64,000 nt of DNA from a bacterium (GTDB lineage Bacteria > UBA8248). Both the position numbers and the translations under genes were made by a program. The DNA lies in contig OY843592.1 in assembly GCA_963692865.2 (NCBI GenBank), forward strand, positions 1 to 64,000. Reading direction: 5' to 3'. Shown piece after piece: positions 1 through 55,640 of the stretch; the stretch's first letter is position 1; every line of letters starts with the position of its first letter. The notes under the pieces were generated by a model. It was not told the DNA's origin. It searched no databases and saw only the letters and a program-made list of their open reading frames with translations.

Positions 1-305
1 ACCCCATCCACTATGACGACGAGGCGGCGCGCGCAGGCGGTCTCGACGGCGTCATCGCCCACGGGATGCTCTCGATGGGCTTTCTCGGGCAATTCATCGA
101 AACCGCCTTCGGCGCGGGCAGCTACAAGAGGCTCGAAGTCCGTTTTCAGGGCATGGTGAAGCTCGGCGAGGTCATCACCTGCCGGGGCGTCGTGACCGAC
201 ATCGCGCAAGAGAGGGGCCGACAATACGCCGCCTGCGATATCGAGGCGGCAGACGCAAGCGGCCGCGTCGTCACCAGGGGTGAGGCGCAGGCCTGGCTGG
301 ACTGA
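1..305 (+). CDS. MaoC-family (hot-dog) dehydratase, 5'-truncated by window edge
   Basis: Frame from position 3 reads PIHYDDEAARAGGLDGVIAHGM, the MaoC hydratase motif. Confidence 0.85.
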   Translation, partial: PIHYDDEAARAGGLDGVIAHGMLSMGFLGQFIETAFGAGSYKRLEVRFQGMVKLGEVITCRGVVTDIAQERGRQYAACDIEAADASGRVVTRGEAQAWLD

Positions 306-329
306 AATCCAACGAAAGAGAGGAATTCC

Positions 330-1073
330 ATGAGACTCAAAAAAAAGAACGCCCTCGTCACGGGCGCGGCGCAGGGCATCGGACGCTCGGTATGCCGGCG
401 CTTCGCCGAAGAAGGCGCCAAGGTGCTCGTCGTCGACATGAACGAGGAAGGCGGCGAGGAGACGGCGCGCCTGATTAGAGACGCGGGCGGCGAGGCGCTC
501 TTCCACAAGGCCGACGTGAGCAGCCTCGCGGAAGTCGAGGGCGCGCTCGACGCGTCCGAAGCCGCGCACGGGCCGATAAACGTGATGGTGAACAACGCCG
601 GCATCGTCCGCGCGGCCATGCTCCACAAGATGAGCGAGGCGCAGTGGGATGATGTAATCGCCGTCCACCTCAAGGGCACGTGGGCGGGCATCCACGCGGC
701 GGCCAAGCGCATGATTCCCCGCAAGGAAGGCCGCATCATCAACGTCACATCGGGCGCGGGGCTTCGCGGCACCATCGGCCAGATCAACTACTCCTCCGCC
801 AAGATGGGCATCGTCGGCGCGACGCAGAGCGCGGCGCGTGAACTGGGGCGCCACAACATCACCGTGAACTGCGTCTCGCCTGCGGCCATCACCCCGATGA
901 CGGAGACGATCCGCACCGATGAGCGTTTCGAGTCGAAGTATCTTGAGCGCATCTGCCTGGGCCGGTGGGGCGAGCCCGAGGAGATGGCGGCGGGCTTCGT
1001 CTTCCTGGCGTCGGACGAAGCGAGCTACGTGACGGGCATCGTGCTCAGAATCGACGGTGGACTGGGGATGTAG
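330..1073 (+). CDS. SDR oxidoreductase, FabG-like 3-oxoacyl reductase
   Basis: TGAAQGIG, NNAG and YSSAK motifs. Confidence 0.9.
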   Translation: MRLKKKNALVTGAAQGIGRSVCRRFAEEGAKVLVVDMNEEGGEETARLIRDAGGEALFHKADVSSLAEVEGALDASEAAHGPINVMVNNAGIVRAAMLHKMSEAQWDDVIAVHLKGTWAGIHAAAKRMIPRKEGRIINVTSGAGLRGTIGQINYSSAKMGIVGATQSAARELGRHNITVNCVSPAAITPMTETIRTDERFESKYLERICLGRWGEPEEMAAGFVFLASDEASYVTGIVLRIDGGLGM

Positions 1074-1158
1074 GGGGAGGCGTCATGAACGCCCGAAGCA
1101 AGACGTTTACCCACAGGGGCGGTTCGCGAACGTGGGCCGCTTGATTTGCTCGGTTTCC

Positions 1159-1755
1159 GTAGGGACAGGTCGCGATCTGTCCCTCGTGAGAGCAAGGCGT
1201 GGAAGGCGAAGCGCTGCCACCGTGCCGTCATTCCGGCGAATGCCGGAATCCAGGTTTTTTTGAGATGAAGCAACCATGCGTATACATTCTCGCCAGCAAG
1301 CGTAACGGCACCCTCTATATCGGCGTCACCTCAGACCTCATCCGGCGAGTCTGGCAACACAAGAATGATATGGAAGAAGATTTCACGAAGCGTTACGGCG
1401 TCCACGAGTTGCTCTGGTACGAGAGTCATGAAACGATGGAGAGCGCGATTACGCGCGAGAAGAGGCTTAAAAACTGGACAAGGATGGGGAAAATCTCTTT
1501 GATTGAAGAGGGCAATCCGAGATGGCGCGATTTATATGAAGACCTCGTCGGTTCTGGATTCCGGCATTCGCCGGAATGACGTGGGGTCTTTTTATCGGAA
1601 GCGGGAAGAATTCAGGGTGTGGCCGGATGGAAAGGCCTTGAACCTGACGGAGCATTGCGAAGTTGCCGTCATTCCGGCGAATGCCGGAATCCAGGACCGA
1701 TCAATTTCTCTCTGATCCGGACATCTCGAACGGATAGAGATCAGCAACCGTAGGG
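1159..1755 (+). mobile_element. REP-bracketed GIY-YIG cassette, copy 1
   Basis: GTAG palindrome 1159-1185; CGTCATTCCGGCGAATGCCGGAATCCA at 1226-1252 (+), 1555-1581 (-) and 1667-1693 (+); colinear with 7665-8254. Confidence 0.7.
1265..1579 (+). CDS. Small stand-alone GIY-YIG nuclease (UPF0213-like)
   Basis: MKQPCVYILASKRNGTLYIGVTSDLIRRVWQH...AITREKRLKNW...LIEEGNP; the TGA stop lies inside the downstream palindrome. Confidence 0.9.
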   Translation: MKQPCVYILASKRNGTLYIGVTSDLIRRVWQHKNDMEEDFTKRYGVHELLWYESHETMESAITREKRLKNWTRMGKISLIEEGNPRWRDLYEDLVGSGFRHSPE

Positions 1756-1909
1756 GCGATTCCCTTTTCGGGACCGCCCCACCATTCGCGAACGGCCCCT
1801 ACAGACGAAAACCCTCGCTCCCCGTTCTCCCCATCTGGCATCCCCTTGGCGGGCCTGCTAGAATCGCCGCAGTATCACCCCGGTAAACAACGCAATCGGA
1901 GGAGCCGCC

Positions 1910-2938
1910 ATGAAGGCCATGATCCTGAAAGAGTTCGGCCGGCCCCTCGTCTACGAGGAGGCGCCCGAGCCCGAGATCGGCCCCCGCCAGGTGCTCGTCG
2001 AATCGAAGGCGAACGGCCTGTGCGCGACGGACCTCAAAATCGTGGACGGGAGCGTCAAGACGGCCCCCACGCCCCTGATGCTCGGCCATGAGAATTCAGG
2101 CGTCGTGCTCGAAGTCGGCGCGGAGGTCGAATCCGTCGCTCCCGGCGACCGCGTGGTCGTCGTGAGCAAACAGACCTGCGGGCGCTGCCGCATGTGCCGC
2201 GCCGGCCACGAGGAGATGTGCCTGAACTCGCCGGGACGCCTGGGAATCGAGATAGACGGCGGCTTCGGCCAGTTGGTCGCGGCCTCGGAGCGGAACCTCG
2301 TCAAAATCGGGGAGAACGTATCGCTGGCGGCGGCTTCTCTCATCGGCGGGACGCTCGGCTCCCCGCTCCACGCCATCCGCATGGCGCGTCCCGAACTCGG
2401 CGAGTGCGCCGTCATCTTCGGCGTCGGGGGCCTGGGGCTGCATGCCCTGCAGATACTCCGCCACCTGGGGGCGAACGTGATCGCCGTGGACGTGAAGGAG
2501 GAGAAGCTCGCCAAGGCGCGCGAACTCGGCGCGTTCGAGGCGGTGAACGCGATGGAGACCGACCCCGTGAAGGCCGTGATGGACATAACAGGGGGATTCG
2601 GGGCGGACATCGCGCTCGAGATCGTCGGCGGGGCCGCCGTGCCGCCCGTGCTCCAGCAGTGCATCGATCTGCTCCGGCCCGGCGGGCGCCTCGTCATCCT
2701 GGGCTATTCCTTCGGCCAGAAGGTGGAGATCGACCCCGCGCAACTCGTCTACAAGTGGATACAGATCGTCGCGTCGCACAACCATACCGTGCGCGACGTG
2801 GCCGACGCCGCGAGCCTGGTGAACGACGGCCGCGTGCGCGCGGTCATCACCGAGGAGGCCCCGATGCCGGACGCCAACGACGCGCTGGCCGCCCTTCGCG
2901 CGGGCGACCCGGTGGGCCGCATCGTGCTCACCTGGTGA
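1910..2938 (+). CDS. Zinc-binding alcohol dehydrogenase (MDR family)
   Basis: GLCATD, GHE, CGRCRMC...C structural Zn site, GVGGLG. Confidence 0.9.
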
Positions 2939-3032
2939 GGCGCGCGCAGAGGACAGTCCTCAAGAAAACAACGAGCATTCCGATGAAACCATAGACCAAC
3001 GAAACCTTTACAACGCATCAGCAGGAGGCGGC

Positions 3033-4424
3033 ATGGCGTATCGAATCGAAACGGACAGCATGGGCGAGATCGAAGTGCCCGAGGAGAAATACTACGGCGC
3101 GCAGACGGCGCGCTCGCTCGTTCACTTCAAGATCGGCGGAGACCGCTTCCCGCGCGAGATCATCCGCGCGCTGGGGATTCTGAAGAAAGCCGCCGCGGTG
3201 ACGAACGAGGAGCTGGGAATCCTGGATTCGAAGAAGGCCGCGCTCATCACCCGGGCGGCGGACGAGGTGATCGCGGGCGATCTGGACGCGCACTTCCCGC
3301 TCGTCGTCTGGCAGACCGGCAGCGGCACGCAGACGAACATGAACGCCAACGAGGTCATCGCCAACCGCGCCATCGAACTGGCGGGCGGCGAGATGGGCTC
3401 CAAGGACCCGATCCACCCCAACGACGACGTGAACAAGGCGCAGTCCTCGAACGACACCTTCCCGACGGCGATGCACGTCGCGGCGGGCGAGCAGATGACG
3501 AAGAAGCTCATCCCCGCCGTGGAGACGCTCCGGACGACGCTCGCGCAGAAGGCCGAGGCCTTCGATTCGATCATCAAGATCGGCCGTACGCACTTGATGG
3601 ACGCCGTTCCCCTCACGCTGGGCCAGGAATTCTCGGGCTACGCCCAGCAGCTGGAAAACGGCCTCGCGCGCGTCAGGATGTCGCTCGACGGAATCTACGA
3701 ACTCGCGCTCGGCGGTACGGCGGTGGGCACGGGCCTCAACACGCACCCCGACTTCGCGGAGAAGGCCGCCGCCCGGATCGCGGAGATGACGGGGCTTCCC
3801 TTCCGCAGCGCGCCCAACAAGTTCGAGGCGCTCGCCGCGCACGATGCGGTCGTCTTCGCGAGCGGGGCGGTGAAGACGCTCGCGGCGTCGCTCATGAAGA
3901 TAGCGAACGACATCCGCATGCTGGCGTCCGGCCCCCGGTGCGGCGTGGGCGAGCTTCTCATCCCCGAGAACGAACCGGGAAGCTCCATTATGCCCGGCAA
4001 GGTGAACCCCACCCAGAGCGAGGCGATGACGATGGTGTGCGCCCAGGTGATGGGCAACGACGTGGCGGTGAACGTGGGCGGCGCGACGGGGCATTTCGAA
4101 CTGAACGTCTTCAAGCCCGTGATGATATTCAACCTGCTCAATTCCGTGCGCCTGCTGGCCGATGCGTGCGATTCGTTCAACGAGCACTGCGCGACGGGAA
4201 TCGAGCCGAACCGGCCCGCGATAGAGGGCTATCTCCAGAACTCGCTCATGCTCGTGACGGCGCTGAATCCCGTCATCGGCTACGACAACGCGGCCAAAGT
4301 GGCGAAAAAGGCGTTCGCCGAAGGCGGCACCCTGCGCGACGCTGCGATTGCGCTAGAGCTCCTCACGGGCGAGGAATTCGACGCGGCCGTCAGGCCCGAG
4401 AACATGATCGGGCCGAGAGGGTGA
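3033..4424 (+). CDS. fumC: Class II fumarate hydratase
   Basis: [15 protein letters not shown] signature, QSSNDTFPT. Confidence 0.97.
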
Positions 4425-4534
4425 GGGAGGAGCCCCGCTAATTTGCCCTCCCAACCCGCAGGGACAACCCTTTCGGGTTGGCCAGCCTCCTGTGGTCGTC
4501 CCTTTTCAAGGCAGGCAATAGGGCCTTGGCCCTG

Positions 4535-5668
4535 CTATGAAACAGCCTCCTGAAGCCGCGCCCAGAGGTATTCCGCGTCCGCATCCGTGAGGGGATCGGG
4601 GGAGATGAAGATTCCCGACTCGCCGGATACGCCGAGTTGAACCCGCACCTCGCACGCCCACAGCGCGCGGGCGACCTCATCGCGCGTTTTCCCGAGCGTT
4701 TCCTCGTCGATTTCGACGACGACTTCGGGCAAATCCTGCCCCAGGGAGTTCGGGCGCCTCAGACGCGGCGAGAGCCCCTTCATTCCGGCCAGGCGCTCCA
4801 TGAAGAACTCGCACCACCGCTCGTTGTGGGCGTATTGCTCCGCCTCGCCGCCGTCGAGATAATGCTCGAGCGCGCATAGCAAACCCACGACGTCGTCGCG
4901 CCCCGCCTTCATGGGCCGGCCGACCGAATACCTGGGGCTTCCCATCATGGCGCATGCCGCGACGATCTCCTTCTTGCCCAGGATGACCCCCGTGTTCTGC
5001 GGCCCGCCGATGCTCTTCCCCCCGCTGAAGATGGCGGCGTCGGCCCCCATTTCCTCGGTGTAGCGCCAAAGATTGGCCGACGGGGGAAGCTGCGCCGCGG
5101 CGTCCACGACCACGGGCACGTTGTTGGCGTGCGCGATCTCGATGATGGTCTCGAGCTTCAGGATGTTCTCGCCCGCGTAGCGGCCCGGAAAATAAAAGAC
5201 GCCCGCCGTTTTCTCGCCGATGGCCTCTTCGAGCTCCCAGGGGTGGGTCTGGCGGTGCGAGCCGATCTCCACGAGCCGCGCGCCCGCCTGGCGGATGTTG
5301 ATGTCGTAGTGGTTTCTCTGGAAGCGGTGGATCACGATCTCGTTCTTGAGACCGTCGGTGAAGGGGAGCCTGTCCATGAGGGCCGGGTTCTTGCCCGTGA
5401 TGCAGGCCGCGGCGCACAGCACGAGGCCGGCGGCGGAGCCGCTCGTCACGTAGGCCGCCTCGTTTCGCGTCATCCCGGCGATTCGCGCGCCCGCCTTCGC
5501 GTGCAACTCGTTCATGTCCACCTGGGCGGCGTTCGCCTCCCGCATGGCGGCCCACACCTCGGGCCTCATTTTCGAGCCGCCGAAGACGGTCTGGCGCGTG
5601 CGCGCGCTGATGACGCGGCGGACGCCGAGGTCATGCAAGAATCTGGGGTCTTGCGCGGATTCGTTAAT
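4535..5668 (-). CDS. SelA-like/DgaE-family PLP-dependent enzyme; start uncertain (possibly ATT at 5668)
   Basis: LGVRRVISA..TVFGGS, VDAAAQ, FSGGKSIGGPQ, GRPMKAGR. Confidence 0.8.
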   Translation of the reverse strand: MNESAQDPRFLHDLGVRRVISARTRQTVFGGSKMRPEVWAAMREANAAQVDMNELHAKAGARIAGMTRNEAAYVTSGSAAGLVLCAAACITGKNPALMDRLPFTDGLKNEIVIHRFQRNHYDINIRQAGARLVEIGSHRQTHPWELEEAIGEKTAGVFYFPGRYAGENILKLETIIEIAHANNVPVVVDAAAQLPPSANLWRYTEEMGADAAIFSGGKSIGGPQNTGVILGKKEIVAACAMMGSPRYSVGRPMKAGRDDVVGLLCALEHYLDGGEAEQYAHNERWCEFFMERLAGMKGLSPRLRRPNSLGQDLPEVVVEIDEETLGKTRDEVARALWACEVRVQLGVSGESGIFISPDPLTDADAEYLWARLQEAVS

Positions 5669-5679
5669 CGCCTTGCTCC

Positions 5680-6426
5680 TCAGCCTGAGGTGGAATAGCG
5701 CACCGCCGCGCCTTGAAGGAGAATCCACGATGCGTCTTCGGTCTTTCCGAATAAAGATAGGGTGTGAAAACCCTCTTCATCTCGGGAGAAGCGCCTCTCG
5801 AATTCAACCTTGAAAGCCTGCGACGCTTCACGAGGCGCGATCTCCAAATCGATGGATTCGAGCGGCGCGCCGTCCAGCCCCACGCCCAGAAGCAGCGGCG
5901 AGGCGGCGTTTTCGCTCCTCACGCGGCCCTCGATAGTAAGATGCGCCTCCTCCTCTCCCCATACGAGAAAAGAGACGGCGAGGTCCGGCGATATCTCGCG
6001 CCATTCGCCCCCAGGAACCGCCGCATCCGCGCGCAGGCTTTGCCGCCACTCGACAGGCATCCGATTGTGCCGGCTCAGGATGAGCGTCCTGTGCTCGGGC
6101 CTGTCCGCCCAGTGGTAGTGTTTGGGCCTGCTCTCGTAGGGCCTTCCCATGCCGACGAGCAGGGCCGCCGCGTCGCCGCGCATCACCTCCTCGCCGTCCA
6201 AAGTCTCATGCCCGGTGGTCGAAGCGATCAGCTTCACGCGCTCGCGTCCTGCATCCCACGTCGCGTAGACGTACTGCACCGTATCGACGGGTGGCCGCGA
6301 GGCCACGTTGGGCGGAGGTTCCTGCAGAACGCGCAGCCGCCCGCCGATACGGATCTCCTCACCGCCGCGGCGCACGAGTTCGAGCTGGTGGAAGCCCCGG
6401 TATTCGAGACGGCACGGCTGGGTCAT
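5680..6426 (-). CDS. Hypothetical protein
   Basis: Long ORF with GGAGGAG RBS before ATG 6426; its stop overlaps the RBS of the next gene. Confidence 0.65.
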   Translation of the reverse strand: MTQPCRLEYRGFHQLELVRRGGEEIRIGGRLRVLQEPPPNVASRPPVDTVQYVYATWDAGRERVKLIASTTGHETLDGEEVMRGDAAALLVGMGRPYESRPKHYHWADRPEHRTLILSRHNRMPVEWRQSLRADAAVPGGEWREISPDLAVSFLVWGEEEAHLTIEGRVRSENAASPLLLGVGLDGAPLESIDLEIAPREASQAFKVEFERRFSRDEEGFHTLSLFGKTEDASWILLQGAAVRYSTSG

Positions 6427-6566
6427 GGAGGCTCCTCCATCGGAAGCGCGCTTTTCGTTGTTCGATGCGCCCATCATATCACGATGTGCGCGCGGGATGG
6501 ATCGTGTATCATGGCGCCGCGCCGCCGCCCGGCGGCGTTTTCTTTATCGACTACAGGAGTTTCGAG

Positions 6567-7610
6567 ATGCGCATTACGACCACCCTTCCGATGGACGATC
6601 TGAACAAAGCGGGTCCCGCCGCACGCGATATCGAGGCGGCGGGCTATGACGGCGCCATGACCATGGAGAACGCGCACCACCCGTTTCTGCCCCTGGCGGT
6701 GGCGGCGGTGGAGACCGGGCGCGTGGAGCTTCTGACCGCCGTGGCCATCGCCTTCCCCAGAAGCCCCATGGTGTGCGCGAACGCCGCGTGGGACCTGCAG
6801 GTCGCCTCGGGCGGGAGGTTCGTCCTGGGGCTCGGCCCGCAGATCAGGGCGCACAACGTGCGGCGCTTCAGCGTGCCCTGGAGCGCGCCCGCGGCGAGGA
6901 TGCGCGAATACGTGGAATCGCTCCGCGCGATATGGCGCGCGTGGCGGAACGGGGAAAAGCTTGATTACCAGGGCGAACACTACCAGTTCAGCCTCATGAC
7001 GCCCGCCTTCACGCCGCCCTCGGGAGGGCAGCCCATGACGCCCGTCACCATCGCGGCGGTGGGGCCGGGGATGCTCTCCGTCGCGGGACGCCGCTGCGAC
7101 GGCGTGCGTCTGCATCCGTTTTGTACGAGCAGGTATTTCGAGGAGTTCTGCCTGCCGAAGCTCACCGGGGGATTCACAGAGAACGGGATTACGCGCGAGC
7201 AGTTCGAAATAACGGGCGGGGGCTACGTCGTCACGGGGCGCGACGAGGAGGCCATCAGGCGCGGAATGGACGAGGTGAAGGTGCGCCTCGGTTTTTACGG
7301 CTCCACGCCCGATTACTGGCCCGTGCTCGAGATGCACGGCTACGGCGATCTGGGGCGTAAGCTCAGGCAGATGACGCGCGAGGGGAAATGGGACGCGCTC
7401 GCGGGCGAGATTCCGGACGACCTGGTACGCCTCTTCGCCGCCGTGGGCGTGCACGGGGAGATCAGGGGAGCGATAGAGGCGCGCTTTGCGAACGGCGTCG
7501 ACACACTCTACGCGGGCATGCTCCCCACGGCGGACAGGGACCTGCCGCCGGACCTGATTCAGGACATACAGGCGATACCGGTGGCGTTCGAGGGGTATGC
7601 GGAGCGGTAG
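6567..7610 (+). CDS. LLM-class (probably F420-dependent) oxidoreductase
   Basis: AVAIAFPRSPM, GRFVLGLGPQIRAH, FYGSTPDY; AGGAG RBS. Confidence 0.85.
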   Translation: MRITTTLPMDDLNKAGPAARDIEAAGYDGAMTMENAHHPFLPLAVAAVETGRVELLTAVAIAFPRSPMVCANAAWDLQVASGGRFVLGLGPQIRAHNVRRFSVPWSAPAARMREYVESLRAIWRAWRNGEKLDYQGEHYQFSLMTPAFTPPSGGQPMTPVTIAAVGPGMLSVAGRRCDGVRLHPFCTSRYFEEFCLPKLTGGFTENGITREQFEITGGGYVVTGRDEEAIRRGMDEVKVRLGFYGSTPDYWPVLEMHGYGDLGRKLRQMTREGKWDALAGEIPDDLVRLFAAVGVHGEIRGAIEARFANGVDTLYAGMLPTADRDLPPDLIQDIQAIPVAFEGYAER

Positions 7611-7664
7611 GGGATGGCGTGGAGACGCCTTGGGTAGTGACAGCCCCTCCTCGGGGCTGTCCCA

Positions 7665-8254
7665 CAGGTCGCGACCTGTCCCTATGAGATCAAGGCATGG
7701 AAGGCGATGCGCCGCCACCGTGCCGTCATTCCGGCGCATGCCGGAATCCAGGGTTTTCGAGATGAAGCAACCATGCGTATACATTCTTGCCAGCAAGCGT
7801 AACGGCACACTCTATATCGGCGTCACCTCAGACCTCATACGGCGGGTCTGGAGACACAAAAATGATTTGGCAGAAAGCTTCACGAAGCGTTTTACGGCAT
7901 CCATAAGCTAGTCTGGCACCAGAGCCATGAAACAATGGAGAGCGCAATTACGCATGAGAAGAGGCTCAAAAACTGGCCGCGGTCTTGGAAAATCGGGTTA
8001 ATTGAAGAGAGGAATCCTGAATGGAATGACTTGTTTGGAGACCTCATCGGCTCTGGATTCCGGCATTCGCCGGAATGACGGTGGGTTTGCTTATCGGAAG
8101 CGAGAAGAATTGGGGTGTGGCCGAATGGAAAAGCTCTTGAACCAGACGGAGCGTTGCAAAATTGTCGTCATTCCGGCGCATGCCGGAATCCAGGACAGAG
8201 CAATTATTCTCCGATTTTGGACATCTCGAATGTCAGGCATTTACGATTGTAGGG
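7665..8254 (+). mobile_element. REP-bracketed GIY-YIG cassette, copy 2
   Basis: CGTC palindromes at 7724-7750 (+), 8054-8080 (-) and 8166-8192 (+); flanks and spacers homologous to copy 1. Confidence 0.7.
7762..8078 (+). pseudogene. GIY-YIG nuclease, frameshifted paralog of 1265..1579
   Basis: Same N-terminus; 2 extra T at ~7891 (AAGCGTTTTACGGC vs AAGCGTTACGGC); the shifted frame continues YGIHKLVWHQSHETMESAITHEKRLKNWPRSWKIGLIEERNP to the TGA in the REP. Confidence 0.85.
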
Positions 8255-8305
8255 ACAGGCGCAGGGGCCTATCCCTACGAAACCACCGAAAGTCGTAAGG
8301 AGCCC

Positions 8306-11011
8306 CTAATTCTCGCCGCTCTTCAAAAGCTGCCGCAGCACGTACTGCAGGATGCCGCCGTGCTGGTAGTAGGAGACCTCGTTCGGCGTGTCGATGCGCA
8401 CGACCGCGTCGAAGACGACCGCCTCGCCGCCGCCCTCCGGCGCGGCGGTGACGCGCACCTCCCTGGCTTCGCCCTGCTCGATTCCCTCGATGTCGAAGGT
8501 CTCGCGGCCCGTCAGCCCCAGTCCTTCGGCTGAATCGCCCGGCTTGAACTGGAGCGGCAGCACGCCCATTCCCACGAGGTTCGAGCGGTGGATGCGCTCG
8601 AAGCTCTCGGCGATGACGGCGCGGATGCCGAGCAGGCTCGACCCCTTGGCGGCCCAGTCGCGCGAGGAGCCCGTGCCGTACTCCTTGCCGCCCAGCACGA
8701 CGAGCGGAATCCCCGCCTCCTGGTACTGCATCGCCGCGTCGTAGATGGGCATGACCTCGTTCGTCGGGAAATAGGTGGTGAAGCCGCCCTCGGTGCCCGG
8801 CGCCGCCCGGTTGCGCAGGCGCACGTTCGAGAAGGTGCCGCGCATCATCACCTCGTGGTTCCCCCGCCTTGAGCCGTAAGAGTTGAAATCGGCGGGCAGC
8901 ACGTCGTTCATCACCAGGAAATGTCCGCCCGGGCTGTCGCGCTTGATGGAGCCGGCCGGCGAGATGTGGTCCGTCGTCACCGAATCGCCCAGAAGCGCCA
9001 GGCAGCGCGCGCCCCGGACGTCCTCGACCGGCTCGGGTTCGGCCTTCATGCCGTCGAAATAGGGCGCTTTCCGGATGTAGGTGGACATGTCGTCCCAATC
9101 GAACAGGCCGCCCTCGGGCGTGGGGATTCCCTGCCAGCGCAGATCGCCCCGGAAGACGTCGCCGTAGCTTCTCTGGAACATATCGGCCTTCACGTGGTTC
9201 ATCACCACGTCCTGAAGCTCGCTCTGGGTGGGCCAGATGTCCCGGAGATATACCGGGTTTCCGTCCCCATCCTCGCCCAGGGGGTCTCTCGCGATGTCGA
9301 GATCCATGCGCCCGGCGATGGCGTAGGCCACTACGAGGGGCGGCGAGGCCAGGAAGTTCATGCGCACTTCCGCGTGGACGCGGCCCTCGAAGTTCCGGTT
9401 GCCCGATAGCACCGAGCAGGCGACGAGGTCGCCCTCGGCCACGGCTTGTGAGATGTGCGCGGGCAGCGGGCCCGAGTTCCCGATGCAGGTGGTGCAGCCG
9501 TAGCCCACGTTGTGAAAGCCGAGCGCCTCGAGATAGGGCGTGAGGCCCGCGCTCCTGAGATATTCCGTCACCACCATCGAACCCGGCGCGAGGGAGGTCT
9601 TGACCCAGGGCTTGGTCTTGAGGCCGCGTTCAGCGGCCTTTTTCGCCACCAGACCCGCGCCCAGCATGACGGTGGGGTTCGAGGTGTTCGTGCAGCTCGT
9701 AATCGCCGCGATGACGACCGCCCCGTGCGTTATCTCGTACGTTTTCGTCCCGTCCCGCACGGTGACGGCCGCGGGCGCGGCGACCGCGCCGCCCTCCCCG
9801 CCGCCGATTTCGGCCAGCATCTTGTCGAGTTCGCGCTCGAAGGTGGCGCCGGCGTCCGTGAGTTCGATGCGGTCCTGCGGACGTTTGGGGCCCGAGATGC
9901 TCGGGACGACGTCGCCCAGGTCCAGTTCCAGCGTGTCGGTGTAGACGGCCTCGGGGGAATCCGCCTCGCGGAACATGCCCTGCGCTCTGGCGTAGGCCTC
10001 CACGAGCGCGATCTGCTCGGCGGGCCTGCTCGTGAGCTCCATGTACTTGAGGGTTTCGCCATCGATGGGGAAGATGCCGCAGGTGGCGCCGTACTCAGGC
10101 GCCATGTTGGCGAGCGTCGCGCGGTCGGCGAGCGGCAGGTTGTCGAGACCCGGCCCGTAGAACTCCACGAACTTGCCCACGACGCCCTTTTCCCTCAGCA
10201 TCTGCACGACCACGAGCACCAGGTCGGTCGCCGTGGCGCCCTCTCTCAGGTCGCCCGAGAGCCTGAAGCCCACCACGTCGGGGATGAGCATCGAGTAGGG
10301 CTGGCCCAGCATGGCGGCTTCGGCCTCGATGCCGCCCACGCCCCAGCCCAGGACGCCGATGCCGTTGATCATCGTGGTGTGCGAATCCGTGCCCACGACG
10401 GTGTCGGGAAAGGCGCGCGTCGCGCCTCCCTTTTCGTCCGTGCCCACCACCGGGGCGAGGAACTCCAGGTTCACCTGATGGACGATGCCAGTGTCGGGCG
10501 GCACGGCGCGGAAGTTGTCAAAAGCGTTCTGCGCCCAGCGCAGGAAGGCGTAGCGCTCGGTGTTGCGGTCGTATTCGAGCTGCGCGTTCGCCTCGAGCGC
10601 CGTTTCGGCGCCGAACTCGTCCACCTGCACGGAGTGGTCGATCACCAGGTCGACGGGCTGTAAGGGATTGATGGAGTCGGGGTCGCCGCCCAACTCCTTC
10701 ATGGCGTCGCGCATGGCGGCGAGGTCGACCACCACGGGAACGCCGGTATAATCCTGCAGGAGCACGCGGCTCGGCATGAAGCCGATCTCTTTCGCCTCGT
10801 TCTTCTTCGCGTCCCAGGAGGCGAGCGCCTCGACGTCGGCGGCGCTCACGGCGCGGCCGTCCTCGTTTCTGAGCAGGTTCTCCAGCAACACCTTCATGGC
10901 GTAGGGGAGCCTGTCTATGTCGCCCTTATGTTTCAGCGCGTCGATTCGGTATATCTCATAGATTTTCCCGCCGACTTCGAGTTCTGCGCGGGCGTTGAAG
11001 CTGTTGGTCAT
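8306..11011 (-). CDS. acnA: Aconitate hydratase A
   Basis: [41 protein letters not shown]. Confidence 0.97.
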
Positions 11012-11327
11012 CTTTCACCTCTTTCCGGCCTGAGCGCCGCCTCCCCGATACGCCGCCGGGAGAACGGACTCCGCCTCGTCATGCGCTCTCTGCGTCCGAA
11101 ACCAGCCCGTCGCGGGCGATTTCGCGCAAAAGCTAACAGATTGAATCATATTGGATTACGGAAATACCGACTTCCTAACTTGCCAGATAATACCACAGAT
11201 GGGGGCCGAGGACGAGGGCGATCCGGAATTCGAGCGCAAAAAGCGCCGCTTACGGGGGTTGGGGAAAAAGCCCCTGAAAGCGATTTTGGGTTTCGCGCAT
11301 GCTTTTGAAGTTCACTCCCCCCTTGAG

Positions 11328-11520
11328 GGGGGTGTTGAAAAACCCCTCCTCGCTCGGATTGACCACCGCCGTCATTGTCGTTTCTATTGTAGGGGCCGCA
11401 TATCATGCGGCCCGGCTTTTTCGCCTTCACAATACGGGTCGCATGATATGTCGGACATATATGTCCGACCTACGGGTAAAACGTGGTTGATCCGAGAGGG
11501 ACAGGTTTTTCAACAACCCC
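11328..11520. mobile_element. MITE with TGTTGAAAAA ends carrying GTAG palindromes
   Basis: GGGGGTGTTGAAAAA...TTTTTCAACAACCCC; TTGAG duplicated at 11323-11327 and 11521-11525. Confidence 0.75.
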
Positions 11521-17495: not shown

Positions 17496-18020
17496 TCAGC
17501 CTCTCACCCGATTGTCCGGGTTCTCCCCATCGGACGCCCACCGCGCCGGATTCTCCCGAATGTATTCCCGGATACGGTTCAGGTCTTCATCGTCGCGGAT
17601 AACGTGATCGTGAAAGGAACGCTGCCATTGGAAGAAGGCGAGGCCGCCTTCGCGTATTCGTTTCGATGACGTGGTTTTGAACGCGCCGATCAATTCCGAC
17701 AACGATTTGGTTTTCGCCTCATCCGTAGGGACAGGTCGCGACCTGTCCGCGCCACCGGGCCGGATTACCAAGATACCGTGCAGATGATCCGGCATAACGA
17801 TGTATTCATCCAATTCGACGTACTCATACCGCTCGGCCAACCATCCCCACCGCTCGTTCACGATTTCTCCCGCCCCGTTCAAATTCATCTCTCCGTTCTC
17901 TACACGCCCGAAATGATTGATGCGATCTTGCGCGCAAATCGTCACGAAATAATGCCTCGCCCGGGAATAATCGTATCCCTTCAATCGATTCGGTTTTCGG
18001 TTTCTTTCGCTCAAGCCCAT
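17496..18020 (-). CDS. REP-associated tyrosine transposase (RAYT, HUH Y1)
   Basis: RLKGYDYS, YFVTIC, MPDHLHGIL (HUH), WQRSFHDHVIR, YIRENP; GTAG palindromes at 18040-18063 and inside the gene at 17725-17748. Confidence 0.92.
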   Translation of the reverse strand: MGLSERNRKPNRLKGYDYSRARHYFVTICAQDRINHFGRVENGEMNLNGAGEIVNERWGWLAERYEYVELDEYIVMPDHLHGILVIRPGGADRSRPVPTDEAKTKSLSELIGAFKTTSSKRIREGGLAFFQWQRSFHDHVIRDDEDLNRIREYIRENPARWASDGENPDNRVRG

Positions 18021-18081
18021 ATTTTCGCCGCATCAGCAAGGACAGGTCGCGACCTGTCCCTACCAAAAGTCAAATTCTCAC

Positions 18082-39343: not shown

Positions 39344-39480
39344 CGTCATTCCGGCGAAAGCCGGAATCCATTTGCGGATGCGTGTGAACGAACGGCGGCG
39401 TTTCCTCCCCCGCCGATGCGCAGGAATCCTGACGAAAGGCAAAAGGCGTAAAATGGATTCCGGCTTTCACCGGAATGACG
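39344..39480. repeat. Inverted doublet of CGTC palindromes (REPIN-like)
   Basis: CGTCATTCCGGCGAAAGCCGGAATCCA, ~83-bp spacer, then the reverse complement; spacer similar to 45560-45695. Confidence 0.85.
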
Positions 39481-45520: not shown

Positions 45521-46096
45521 GGGGGTTGTTGGAGAAGCTTACCAATCGAGAGTGTTCACCGTCATTCCGGCGAAAGCCGGAATCCATTTGCGGATGCGGG
45601 TGAATGAACTGCGGCGTTTCATCCCCCGCCGATGTGTAGGAACCCTCAAGAAAGGCAAAAGGCGAAAATGGATTCCGGCTTTCGCCGGAATGACGACCAC
45701 AACCGCATTCACCCGTAGGGGCGGCCCCCCGTGGCCGCCCGTATCGGATATATCCATCCCCGTAGTTGCAATTTGCAGAAGCAGGCACAGGAACCTCGGA
45801 CAGGCACGGGGGCCTGTCCCTACAAAACCATCGCGGCCATGCACGCCGTGTTTGAAGTTCACTACCCCCTTGAGGGTTGGGCTTCCCGAGGGGAAAGCCC
45901 AACGATGAAGCCGAGCGGTTTTTGCGAAGGCTGAATCGGTGGGGGGAGCTTTTTACTGTGGCATGTCCCCCCACCGCATCGGATTTCGCCTAAAGGCTCA
46001 TCCTCTGCGACTCCCCCTCAAGGGGGGAGTGAAGTCTCCTTTCTCATCGGTCGGATCCATACTCAAAATTATGAAACCAGGTTTTTTCAACAATCC
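45521..46096. repeat. Composite repeat island: degenerate MITE ends enclosing a CGTC doublet (45560-45695), GTAG REPs (45715-45823) and a CCCTTGAGGG element (45858-46033)
   Basis: Direct comparison with copies at 11.3, 39.3 and 58.7 kb. Confidence 0.8.
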
Positions 46097-55415: not shown

Positions 55416-55640
55416 GTAGGGACAGGTCGCGACCTGTCCGATTTGGTTTGGATCGTCATTCCGGCGAATGCCGGAACCCAGGGGTTTCGCCTTTGTCTTT
55501 TACTTCTGTCGGATTCCTGCAGATAAGAAGGCATGAAAGGGCCGTAATGTGGCCACCTCATCCGCTCTGGATTCCGGCATTCGCCGGAATGACGGTGGTT
55601 TATCTCGGGCGATGAGGAAAAGTACAAGGACAGGTCGCGA
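55416..55640. repeat. GTAG REPs flanking an inverted CGTC doublet (55454-55594)
   Basis: GTAGGGACAGGTCGCGACCTGTCC 55416-55439; CGTC palindromes at both ends of the doublet; partial REP near 55628. Confidence 0.85.

Follow-up and report, generated by a model that had tools for sequence, protein, structure and literature searches.

Background

Short single-domain GIY-YIG nucleases of the Ssn family, together with the hairpins that they recognise, termed NTS and SRM, were described by Chenal et al. (Nat Commun 2025; PMC11893778). The pairing of a GIY-YIG enzyme with CGTC-headed hairpins is therefore already in the literature, and here we report a new example of it, an ssnA-type gene set between such hairpins in a 64,000-nucleotide stretch of a bacterial genome of the GTDB lineage UBA8248 (assembly GCA_963692865.2, contig OY843592.1, positions 1 to 64,000; hereafter the window, with G000 denoting the genome). 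An earlier note made from the letters of the window had held that no link between GIY-YIG enzymes and CGTC palindromes was known, a statement overturned by that publication.

As Chenal et al. report, SsnA of Neisseria meningitidis is a 94-residue single-domain GIY-YIG protein that binds the hairpin CGTCATTCCCGCGMAVGCGGGAATCYRG only in single-stranded DNA and in one orientation; its cut falls upstream of the motif, by a few bases, and it has no activity on double-stranded DNA (PMC11893778). Mutation of Y6, Y17 or E64 abolishes cutting (Fig. 3 legend), and the cytosine that follows the palindrome is the most crucial base for binding. Three further homologs act likewise on their own motifs, bringing the proteins with in vitro cutting to four. 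The typical gene layout is NTS-ssnA-NTS, with an SRM near 71% of homolog genes and on both sides of 42%, and a homolog is found in 81% of the genomes that exceed 200 SRMs. Knockout of ssnA in N. meningitidis raised transformation 5-fold for NTS-bearing DNA. The Discussion likens the NTS-ssnA-NTS arrangement to an insertion sequence (IS), to IS200/IS605 and to repetitive extragenic palindromes (REPs), as a hypothesis only (PMC11893778). Our literature search found no later work on Ssn.

The hairpins also resemble a class of repeat known for longer. Di Nocera, De Gregorio and Rocco (2013; PMC3733652) described CGTC-tagged REPs, family 1 of which (CGTC-1) has an 8-bp stem starting with AT, a 4-nt loop and a CCA tail. 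These REPs were judged to be without a dedicated transposase, and the Discussion reports that no REP-associated tyrosine transposase (RAYT) was found flanked by CGTC units. The words "Nitrospira" and "GIY-YIG" do not occur in that text, and the lineage studied here lies outside its survey.

The explanation that best accounts for our observations jointly, the inferred mobility included, is that the gene at 1265–1579 of the window very probably encodes a nuclease of the Ssn kind flanked by its cognate SRMs.

An ssnA-type gene flanked by SRMs

The unit consists of the following features.

1226–1253, + strand: upstream SRM, 11 bp before the ATG, with its CGTC head outward and its CCAG tail facing the gene (exact palindrome, SRM motif, fold)
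1265–1579, + strand: intact ssnA-type gene for a 104-aa single-domain GIY-YIG nuclease (Pfam PF01541, homologs, dN/dS)
1554–1581, − strand: downstream SRM, head outward, encoding the 3' end of ssnA and its TGA (palindrome, SRM motif)
1582–1666: 85-bp spacer between the second and third SRM
1667–1694, + strand: third SRM, head toward the gene unit (palindrome, SRM motif)

The gene lies between palindromes where the earlier note had placed it, and its product matches the Pfam GIY-YIG family PF01541 with an E-value of 1.3e-16 over residues 4–74 of 104; a Pfam scan found no second domain in the protein. As had also been read from the sequence, the downstream palindrome (1554–1581) supplies the last nine codons of ssnA (...SGFRHSPE) and the TGA, and a third palindrome (1667–1694) follows the second after 85 bp. 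The 104-aa protein thus comprises a 95-aa conserved core and a 9-aa tail encoded by an SRM. Such SRM-encoded tails also occur in homologs of ssnA from the same genus, and several proteins of the family carry N- or C-terminal extensions that are translated hairpins. Of 8000 candidates scored, 7996 reached an E-value of 1e-5 or lower, and most of the 120 that were listed are 95 aa long.

Residues Y7, Y18, R28, H32 and E65 are invariant in an alignment of 13 homologs. Judging from the lengths (94 vs 95) and the GIY and YIG motifs, Y7, Y18 and E65 probably correspond, at an offset of one, to Y6, Y17 and E64 of N. meningitidis SsnA. The Ssn family (cd10448) is characterised by a single domain of about 94 residues, a catalytic Tyr/Tyr/Glu set, SRMs at the 5' and 3' flanks and SRM enrichment of the genome; here we find a single-domain protein with a 95-aa core, the Tyr/Tyr/Glu set by inferred residue equivalence, an SRM on either side of the gene, and an enriched genome. 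Across 21 pairs among seven intact genes of the genus, the copy at 1265–1579 included, dN/dS was 0.06–0.19, and the intact copies are therefore under purifying selection.

Upstream of the gene, the first SRM and the T run that follows it (GGTTTTTTT, 1230–1258) score like an intrinsic terminator 7 bp before the ssnA start; this T run is not kept in the second copy in the window or in relatives. The stretch is present in four public sequencing runs, all from one study, with no RNA run listed among them; contigs from these runs are interrupted at the repeats, and the joints that they contain stem from other doublets.

The hairpin repeat in the window and the genome

The 27-nt repeat CGTCATTCCGGCGAATGCCGGAATCCA matched the window 12 times at ≤3 mismatches, vs no match in each of 100 shuffles. 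The positions are as follows.

1226 (+), 1555 (−), 1667 (+), 7724 (+), 8054 (−) and 8166 (+): matches to CGTCATTCCGGCGAATGCCGGAATCCA at ≤3 mismatches
39344 (+)/39454 (−), 45560 (+)/45669 (−) and 55454 (+)/55568 (−): matches at ≤3 mismatches, in doublets

Every copy can form a hairpin with a stem of 8 bp and a loop of 4 nt. The repeat reads CGTC-ATTCCGGC-GAAT-GCCGGAAT-CCA, and with its CGTC head, AT-starting stem and CCA tail the repeat has each of the features of CGTC-1 REPs. The published SRM search motif, HGTCWYN(0-2)YYVSBRHN(0-5)WNVSBRGN(0-2)RNCYNB (PMC11893778), was matched by all eight window palindromes tested (1226–1253, 1554–1581, 1667–1694, 7724, 8053, 8166, 39344 and 39453). Compared with the published NTS consensus, the hairpin differs mainly by a compensatory C-to-G change in the stem. 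A search of window positions 1–9000 against Rfam at permissive thresholds gave just two matches, both at chance level, and no family for the hairpin.

With the published motif, G000 contains 302 SRMs, or 72.8 per Mb, which is about 8 times the chance expectation; on contig C1 there are 286, vs 34–39 in five Markov-1 simulations, this control being a Markov simulation where Chenal et al. used a dinucleotide shuffle. Searching with CGTCATTCCGGCGAATGCCGGAATCCA at ≤3 mismatches gave 285 copies genome-wide, among them 110 doublets, defined as heads-outward pairs with starts 80–200 bp apart, 55 singletons and 20 perfect CGTC...GACG hairpins. These counts may be slightly inflated: several doublets on the small contigs C3, C5, C6 and C8 are 99–100% identical to doublets on C1, and, with contamination of G000 estimated at 6.7%, those contigs may be redundant pieces of the assembly.

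The 85-bp spacer and the two SRMs that bound it form a 154-bp module that adjoins the gene in either orientation in relatives. The corresponding stretch of the window, 1548–1701, is a separate segment at the homolog loci L003, L004 and L006, and is inverted in some.

The system resembles the published one in its GIY-YIG protein of about 94–95 residues, its flanking CGTC-headed SRMs and its hundreds of copies per genome. It differs in having a CCGG stem, as opposed to CCCG in Neisseria, in a repeat that supplies a 9-residue tail and the stop codon, in the presence of two paralogs (104 and 95 aa) plus a pseudogene, and in that most repeats form heads-outward doublets and not clusters surrounding the gene. 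The host also appears to be an uncultured environmental bacterium. The likeness to CGTC-1 REPs, which include dRS3 of Neisseria and RPE-6 of Rickettsia, covers head, stem, loop and tail, and extends to frequent inverted dimers with spacers of 20–100 bp and to coexistence with GTAG REPs. Those REPs were reported without an enzyme; the Ssn gene is a candidate for that role in G000, as it is in Chenal et al.

The nuclease and the hairpin are paired across phyla

We examined homolog loci from other hosts, taking the best 80 of 592 confirmed loci (from 594 candidate stretches) by protein similarity only. They come from Beta-, Gamma- and Deltaproteobacteria, Chloroflexota, Planctomycetota, Bipolaricaulota, Rickettsiales and others, at 60–86% identity. 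With the published motif, an SRM was present within 150 bp of the gene at 60 of the 80 loci (75%) and on both sides at 31 (39%), reproducing the published 71% and 42%; the 31 comprise 21 heads-outward, 7 heads-inward and 3 tandem arrangements. A narrower in-house hairpin pattern gave 51 loci with a hairpin on any side and 29 with one on both. Twenty loci without the canonical stem were inspected by eye, and each had a variant CGTC- or GTC-headed hairpin with a longer stem, another loop or a nested insert. At L059 and L090, from other phyla, a second hairpin is nested in the loop of some of the SRMs beside ssnA homologs.

The enrichment of palindromes beside homologs that the earlier note had proposed as a check was borne out: SRM density within 150 bp of the gene was 4.96 per kb (117 in 23,610 bp), and elsewhere in the same 80 loci 0.15 per kb (58 in 382,816 bp), a 33-fold difference. 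The proposed covariation between nuclease clade and palindrome sequence was found as well. On a protein tree of 71 rows, with 16 of 87 dropped for stops or short cores, the stem variant changed 16 times, vs 23.4 ± 1.5 in shuffled labels, and none of 1000 shuffles gave 16 or fewer. The homologs of Dyella mobilis (L113), Methylocucumis oryzae (L084) and Limnohabitans planktonicus (L088) are 61–65% identical to the 104-aa protein, and these three species are marked as having an ssnA homolog in Supplementary Data 4 of Chenal et al. (PMC11893778). The coupling of nuclease and repeat is real and general.

The unit occupies several sites within the genus

The genus set comprised 23 genomes, G000 included, and close ssnA homologs were found in 10 of the 22 others. 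The 356-bp SRM-gene-SRM unit, in its 104-residue form, occurs at four non-orthologous sites.

Site A (SDR-ADH gap): G000, G005 (frameshifted)
Site B: G000 (pseudogene), G003, G011, G013, G014
Site C: G003, G020
Site D: G007

Homology between sites is confined to the part equivalent to window positions 1217/1225–1581, that is, to hairpin, gene and hairpin, and the unit thus appears to behave as mobile within the genus. Sites A, C and D lack ssnA in other species of the genus. Site A contains a GTAG REP alone in G011 and G013 and a RAYT-like gene in G002, G004 and G006; the intergenic region of site D holds a perfect hairpin CGTC...GACG in G000; and G000 at site C shows the upstream context together with half a hairpin. 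Empty sites, for which the earlier note had suggested looking, were thus seen in relatives. The mixture of several repeat families in the intergenic regions kept any clean junction between filled and empty states from being defined. At site C (L005 of G020, 1440–2010; L147 of G003, 1930–2560), about 60–85 bp are directly repeated on both sides of the gene-hairpin-spacer segment. This direct repeat consists of the upstream context and the first SRM, plus the first 7 bases of the gene in G020; G000 has a single copy of the context.

Palindromes number 74–349 in the 11 gene-bearing genomes vs 0–144 in the 12 without the gene, and all five genomes holding 0–11 palindromes are without it. Genomes rich in the repeat but lacking the nuclease, named in that note as grounds for refutation, speak against a strict dependence: G002, G012, G016 and G032 are rich in repeats (86–144) and no ssnA was found in them. 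Their GIY-YIG matches are long frames of UvrC size or an unrelated small protein without SRMs.

A second gene unit and gene-less doublets

The window contains a second unit at 7664–8230 that is 84% identical to 1165–1730.

7724–7751, + strand: upstream SRM of the second unit (palindrome, SRM motif)
7762–8080, + strand: second ssnA copy, a pseudogene (2-bp insertion, stop after 49 codons; synteny)
8053–8080, − strand: downstream SRM of the second unit (palindrome, SRM motif)
8166–8193, + strand: third SRM of the second unit (palindrome, SRM motif)

The recurrence of the roughly 600-bp architecture had been recognised earlier; what had not is that its gene is broken, a 2-bp insertion and a stop after 49 codons making it a pseudogene. 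By synteny its orthologs are intact in G003, G011, G013 and G014. A further intact paralog, of 95 residues, lies outside the window at C1:2636428-2636716, between a doublet and a perfect hairpin.

Three doublets without a nuclease, all at positions previously proposed, lie in the window.

39344–39480: gene-less doublet, heads outward, CCAT-tail subfamily, 137 bp (palindrome search, fold)
45560–45695: gene-less doublet, CCAT-tail subfamily as at 39344
55454–55594: gene-less doublet, CCAG-tail subfamily

The first folds at −45.9 kcal/mol (z −6.6) and is present in G003 and G005 and absent from the same intergenic region of G011, G013 and G014. Homology between the first and second begins at CGTC and stops at GACG, with none beyond, and at the position of the second the doublet of G003 and G005 belongs to another subfamily, within conserved flanks. 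Presence of doublets differs between species at orthologous gaps. In a paralogous repeat series with matching flanks, six copies have no hairpin, one has a perfect hairpin and one has a doublet; most of the apparently empty copies retain part of the hairpin or belong to a larger repeat ending in CGTCAT.

Doublet interiors are conserved over about 83 bp; 99 of the 110 have a full-length interior relative, and they include families of 37, 19 and 13. The doublet at 55454–55594 resembles the ssnA unit in its interior ends, which are like the unit's leader and 3' end. More generally, a 14-nt extension, reverse-complementary to the last ssnA core codons, is found on exactly one side of 37 of the 110 doublets, most of which have CCAGGG..TTTG on the other side, like the ssnA leader. 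These 37 may be deletion derivatives of the gene unit, although a gene that had captured the end of a doublet would look alike. Counts from G011 led us to drop the idea that CCAG tails go with the 104-aa gene and CCAT tails with the 95-aa gene; this genome holds 294 palindromes, 21 of them with the exact CCAG pattern, and in which no 95-aa paralog was found.

GTAG REPs and other repeats near the unit

Two further features belong to a different system.

1159–1185, + strand: GTAG-type REP hairpin (same REP as at the RAYT-like open reading frame (ORF) 17496–18020)
17496–18020, − strand: intact RAYT-like ORF, 174 aa (Y1_Tnp, 26.2 bits; REP_Tyr_transpos, 65.2 bits)

GTAGGG occurs at 1159 and 1750, and these elements had been taken as the bounds of the nuclease unit. 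The positions stand, but judging from the repeats at the RAYT-like ORF the elements are part of a separate RAYT system; the REP at 1159–1185 probably forms the native site, G011 and G013 having only that REP there. The REP GGGACAGGTCGCGACCTGTCCC flanks the RAYT-like ORF (~18040–18062), with one in-frame copy inside it (17735–17758). The ORF's REP_Tyr_transpos score of 65.2 falls under the NCBIfam cut-off of 80 bits. Further RAYT-like copies lie at C1:861542-861943 and C1:1531604-1532137. A whole-genome search with PF01797 gave no match at E ≤ 0.001, a false negative in view of the three copies recovered by tblastn with the RAYT-like ORF of a relative.

Both repeat systems recur in the SDR-ADH gap, a hot spot for them. 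At L017 (G002), L021 (G006) and L022 (G004), the gap orthologous to window positions 1074–1909 contains a RAYT-like gene interrupted by GTAG REPs. A third sequence, GGGGNTGTYGAAAAA, has 1227 copies genome-wide (≤2 mismatches, both strands), for example at window positions 11317–11442, and apparently marks the end of a further abundant miniature element, nested with the REPs and SRMs.

Relation to known mobile systems

The earlier note compared the unit to a RAYT, and the comparison is apt. Like REPIN-RAYT systems, it has a single-copy enzyme gene flanked by the repeat that the enzyme recognises, inverted-hairpin doublets as the abundant form, and repeats that outlast loss of the enzyme. It differs in that the gene encodes a hydrolytic GIY-YIG nuclease and not an HUH/Y1 transposase, and in that this nuclease would cut the two ends on opposite strands.

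Miniature inverted-repeat transposable elements (MITEs) and their parent IS, such as Correia/NEMIS, offer a further parallel, in that short non-coding copies share both ends with a gene-bearing unit. The likeness extends to 12–14 shared subterminal bases, inverted ends and families with conserved interiors. Of the hallmarks of a classical IS or MITE, inverted ends are present; a transposase and a target-site duplication were not found. No DDE, HUH or other transposase ORF is present in either unit, no direct duplication is seen at the palindrome heads, as the earlier note had remarked, and the unit measures just 356 bp. GIY-YIG homing endonucleases of the I-TevI type differ by an added DNA-binding domain, of which the 104-aa protein has none, and by a double-stranded target.

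Proposed mechanism and alternative explanations

By homology with the characterised enzymes, the protein would recognise the SRM when single-stranded and in one orientation only, and its nick would fall outside the CGTC head by a few bases. The two ends of a heads-outward unit present their cleavable orientation on opposite strands, which would place nicks just outside both ends, where homology between the sites stops. A hydrolytic GIY-YIG domain is unable to rejoin DNA by itself, so spreading would depend on replication or repair by the host; opposite-strand nicks would likely start copying or repair by host enzymes, a route distinct from both classical cut-and-paste and HUH strand transfer. 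The unit would then be, or recently have been, a minimal selfish element, with the doublets as its non-autonomous deletion derivatives. Perfect hairpins lack the cytosine after the palindrome and so are more likely to be inert products of collapse than targets. Cutting of incoming single-stranded DNA at the level of the host, as in Neisseria, may coexist with such spreading. We infer that the nuclease likely helps to spread the repeats. The fuller proposal, that the 356-bp unit is an autonomous mobile element encoding only a 95-residue hydrolytic nuclease, with the 137-bp doublets as its miniature derivatives and a nick-and-copy route, we offer tentatively, as a real possibility and not as an established account.

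Several points weigh against this interpretation or narrow it. Assignment to Ssn follows from length, domain, residues and SRM flanks and not from a direct match to N. meningitidis SsnA or cd10448, and hairpin cutting by the 104-aa protein would be an extrapolation from four homologs (PMC11893778). Copies 1 and 2 are homologous well outside the hairpins (1165–1750), so that duplication was not bounded by SRMs, and neither a target duplication nor a clean filled-versus-empty junction could be defined at the sites. Repeats are abundant where no ssnA was detected (123 palindromes in G002, 144 in G012, 89 in G016 and 86 in G032). Site B is kept in five genomes and the site of the 95-aa paralog in six, which looks like vertical inheritance with retention by the host and not like frequent jumping. 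A GGGGNTGTYGAAAAA end lies within 120 bp of 68 of the 110 doublets, mostly at 20–29 bp, and the element with such ends may carry some of them. Finally, seven rows of the protein tree come from one genus, which inflates the clustering of stem labels and overstates its independence.

Retention of site B in five species and of the paralog site in six genomes, the existence of repeat-rich genomes without the gene and the strongly purifying selection on ssnA would suit a domesticated host nuclease only, which cuts single-stranded DNA at SRMs, the repeats being spread by other means and those at its flanks being sites of action or regulation. The 5-fold rise in transformation by NTS-bearing DNA in the Neisseria knockout (PMC11893778) points the same way, as do, only weakly, the homologs of ComEC and DprA in G000, since 10–11 of 14 control genomes also have them. 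We nevertheless regard this as rather unlikely, given a unit at four non-orthologous sites with homology stopping at the hairpin heads, doublets that retain the ends of the gene unit, ssnA pseudogenes in G000 and G005, and protein identities of 60–73% across Proteobacteria, Chloroflexota, Planctomycetota, Bipolaricaulota and others, which indicate rampant horizontal transfer.

It is improbable, in our judgement, that the association is passive, with the RAYT or the transposase of the GGGGNTGTYGAAAAA-ended elements moving the hairpins and doublets and ssnA riding along or landing among them. The pairing of gene and CGTC hairpin at 60 of 80 loci in unrelated hosts, with variants that track nuclease clades, speaks against this, as does the absence of a nearby GGGGNTGTYGAAAAA end from 42 of the 110 doublets and from both gene units. 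The RAYT-like gene of the window is flanked by GTAG REPs and not by SRMs, in agreement with what Di Nocera et al. report in their Discussion (PMC3733652). The passive account has in its favour the proximity of the other 68 doublets to GGGGNTGTYGAAAAA ends, the presence of RAYT-like genes in G000, and a duplication of copies 1 and 2 that reaches past the SRMs and abuts GTAG REPs. Least probable of all is a homing-type process, in which the nuclease would cut both strands of a solo or perfect hairpin, extruded as a cruciform, and the break would be repaired by copying the gene or a doublet interior from a filled site. The perfect hairpin of G000 in the intergenic region that the gene unit occupies in G007, the paralogous series running from hairpin-less copies through a perfect hairpin to a doublet in otherwise matching flanks, and the lack of target duplications are all compatible with it. 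However, SsnA is inactive on double-stranded DNA (PMC11893778), the perfect hairpin is without the cytosine most crucial for binding and could equally be a doublet collapsed by deletion between direct half-repeats, and the protein has no extra DNA-binding domain, scoring 19.2 bits against the cut-off of 56 of the NCBIfam group I intron endonuclease model TIGR01453.

Significance

G000 adds to the Ssn family a specificity variant with a CCGG stem and two paralogs with different repeat tails, and Ssn enzymes are of practical interest as site-specific cutters of single-stranded DNA. Its genus is a natural comparison set, containing intact genes, pseudogenes, two paralogs, repeat-rich genomes free of the gene, sites with and without the unit, and doublets resembling deletion derivatives of the gene unit. 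This makes it directly testable whether Ssn nucleases mobilise CGTC repeats or, as the alternative, serve in control of single-stranded DNA by the host. If the proposed mobility is true, the autonomous unit would give the CGTC REPs the mobilising enzyme that they were reported to lack, and would do so by a route unlike that of any known transposase.

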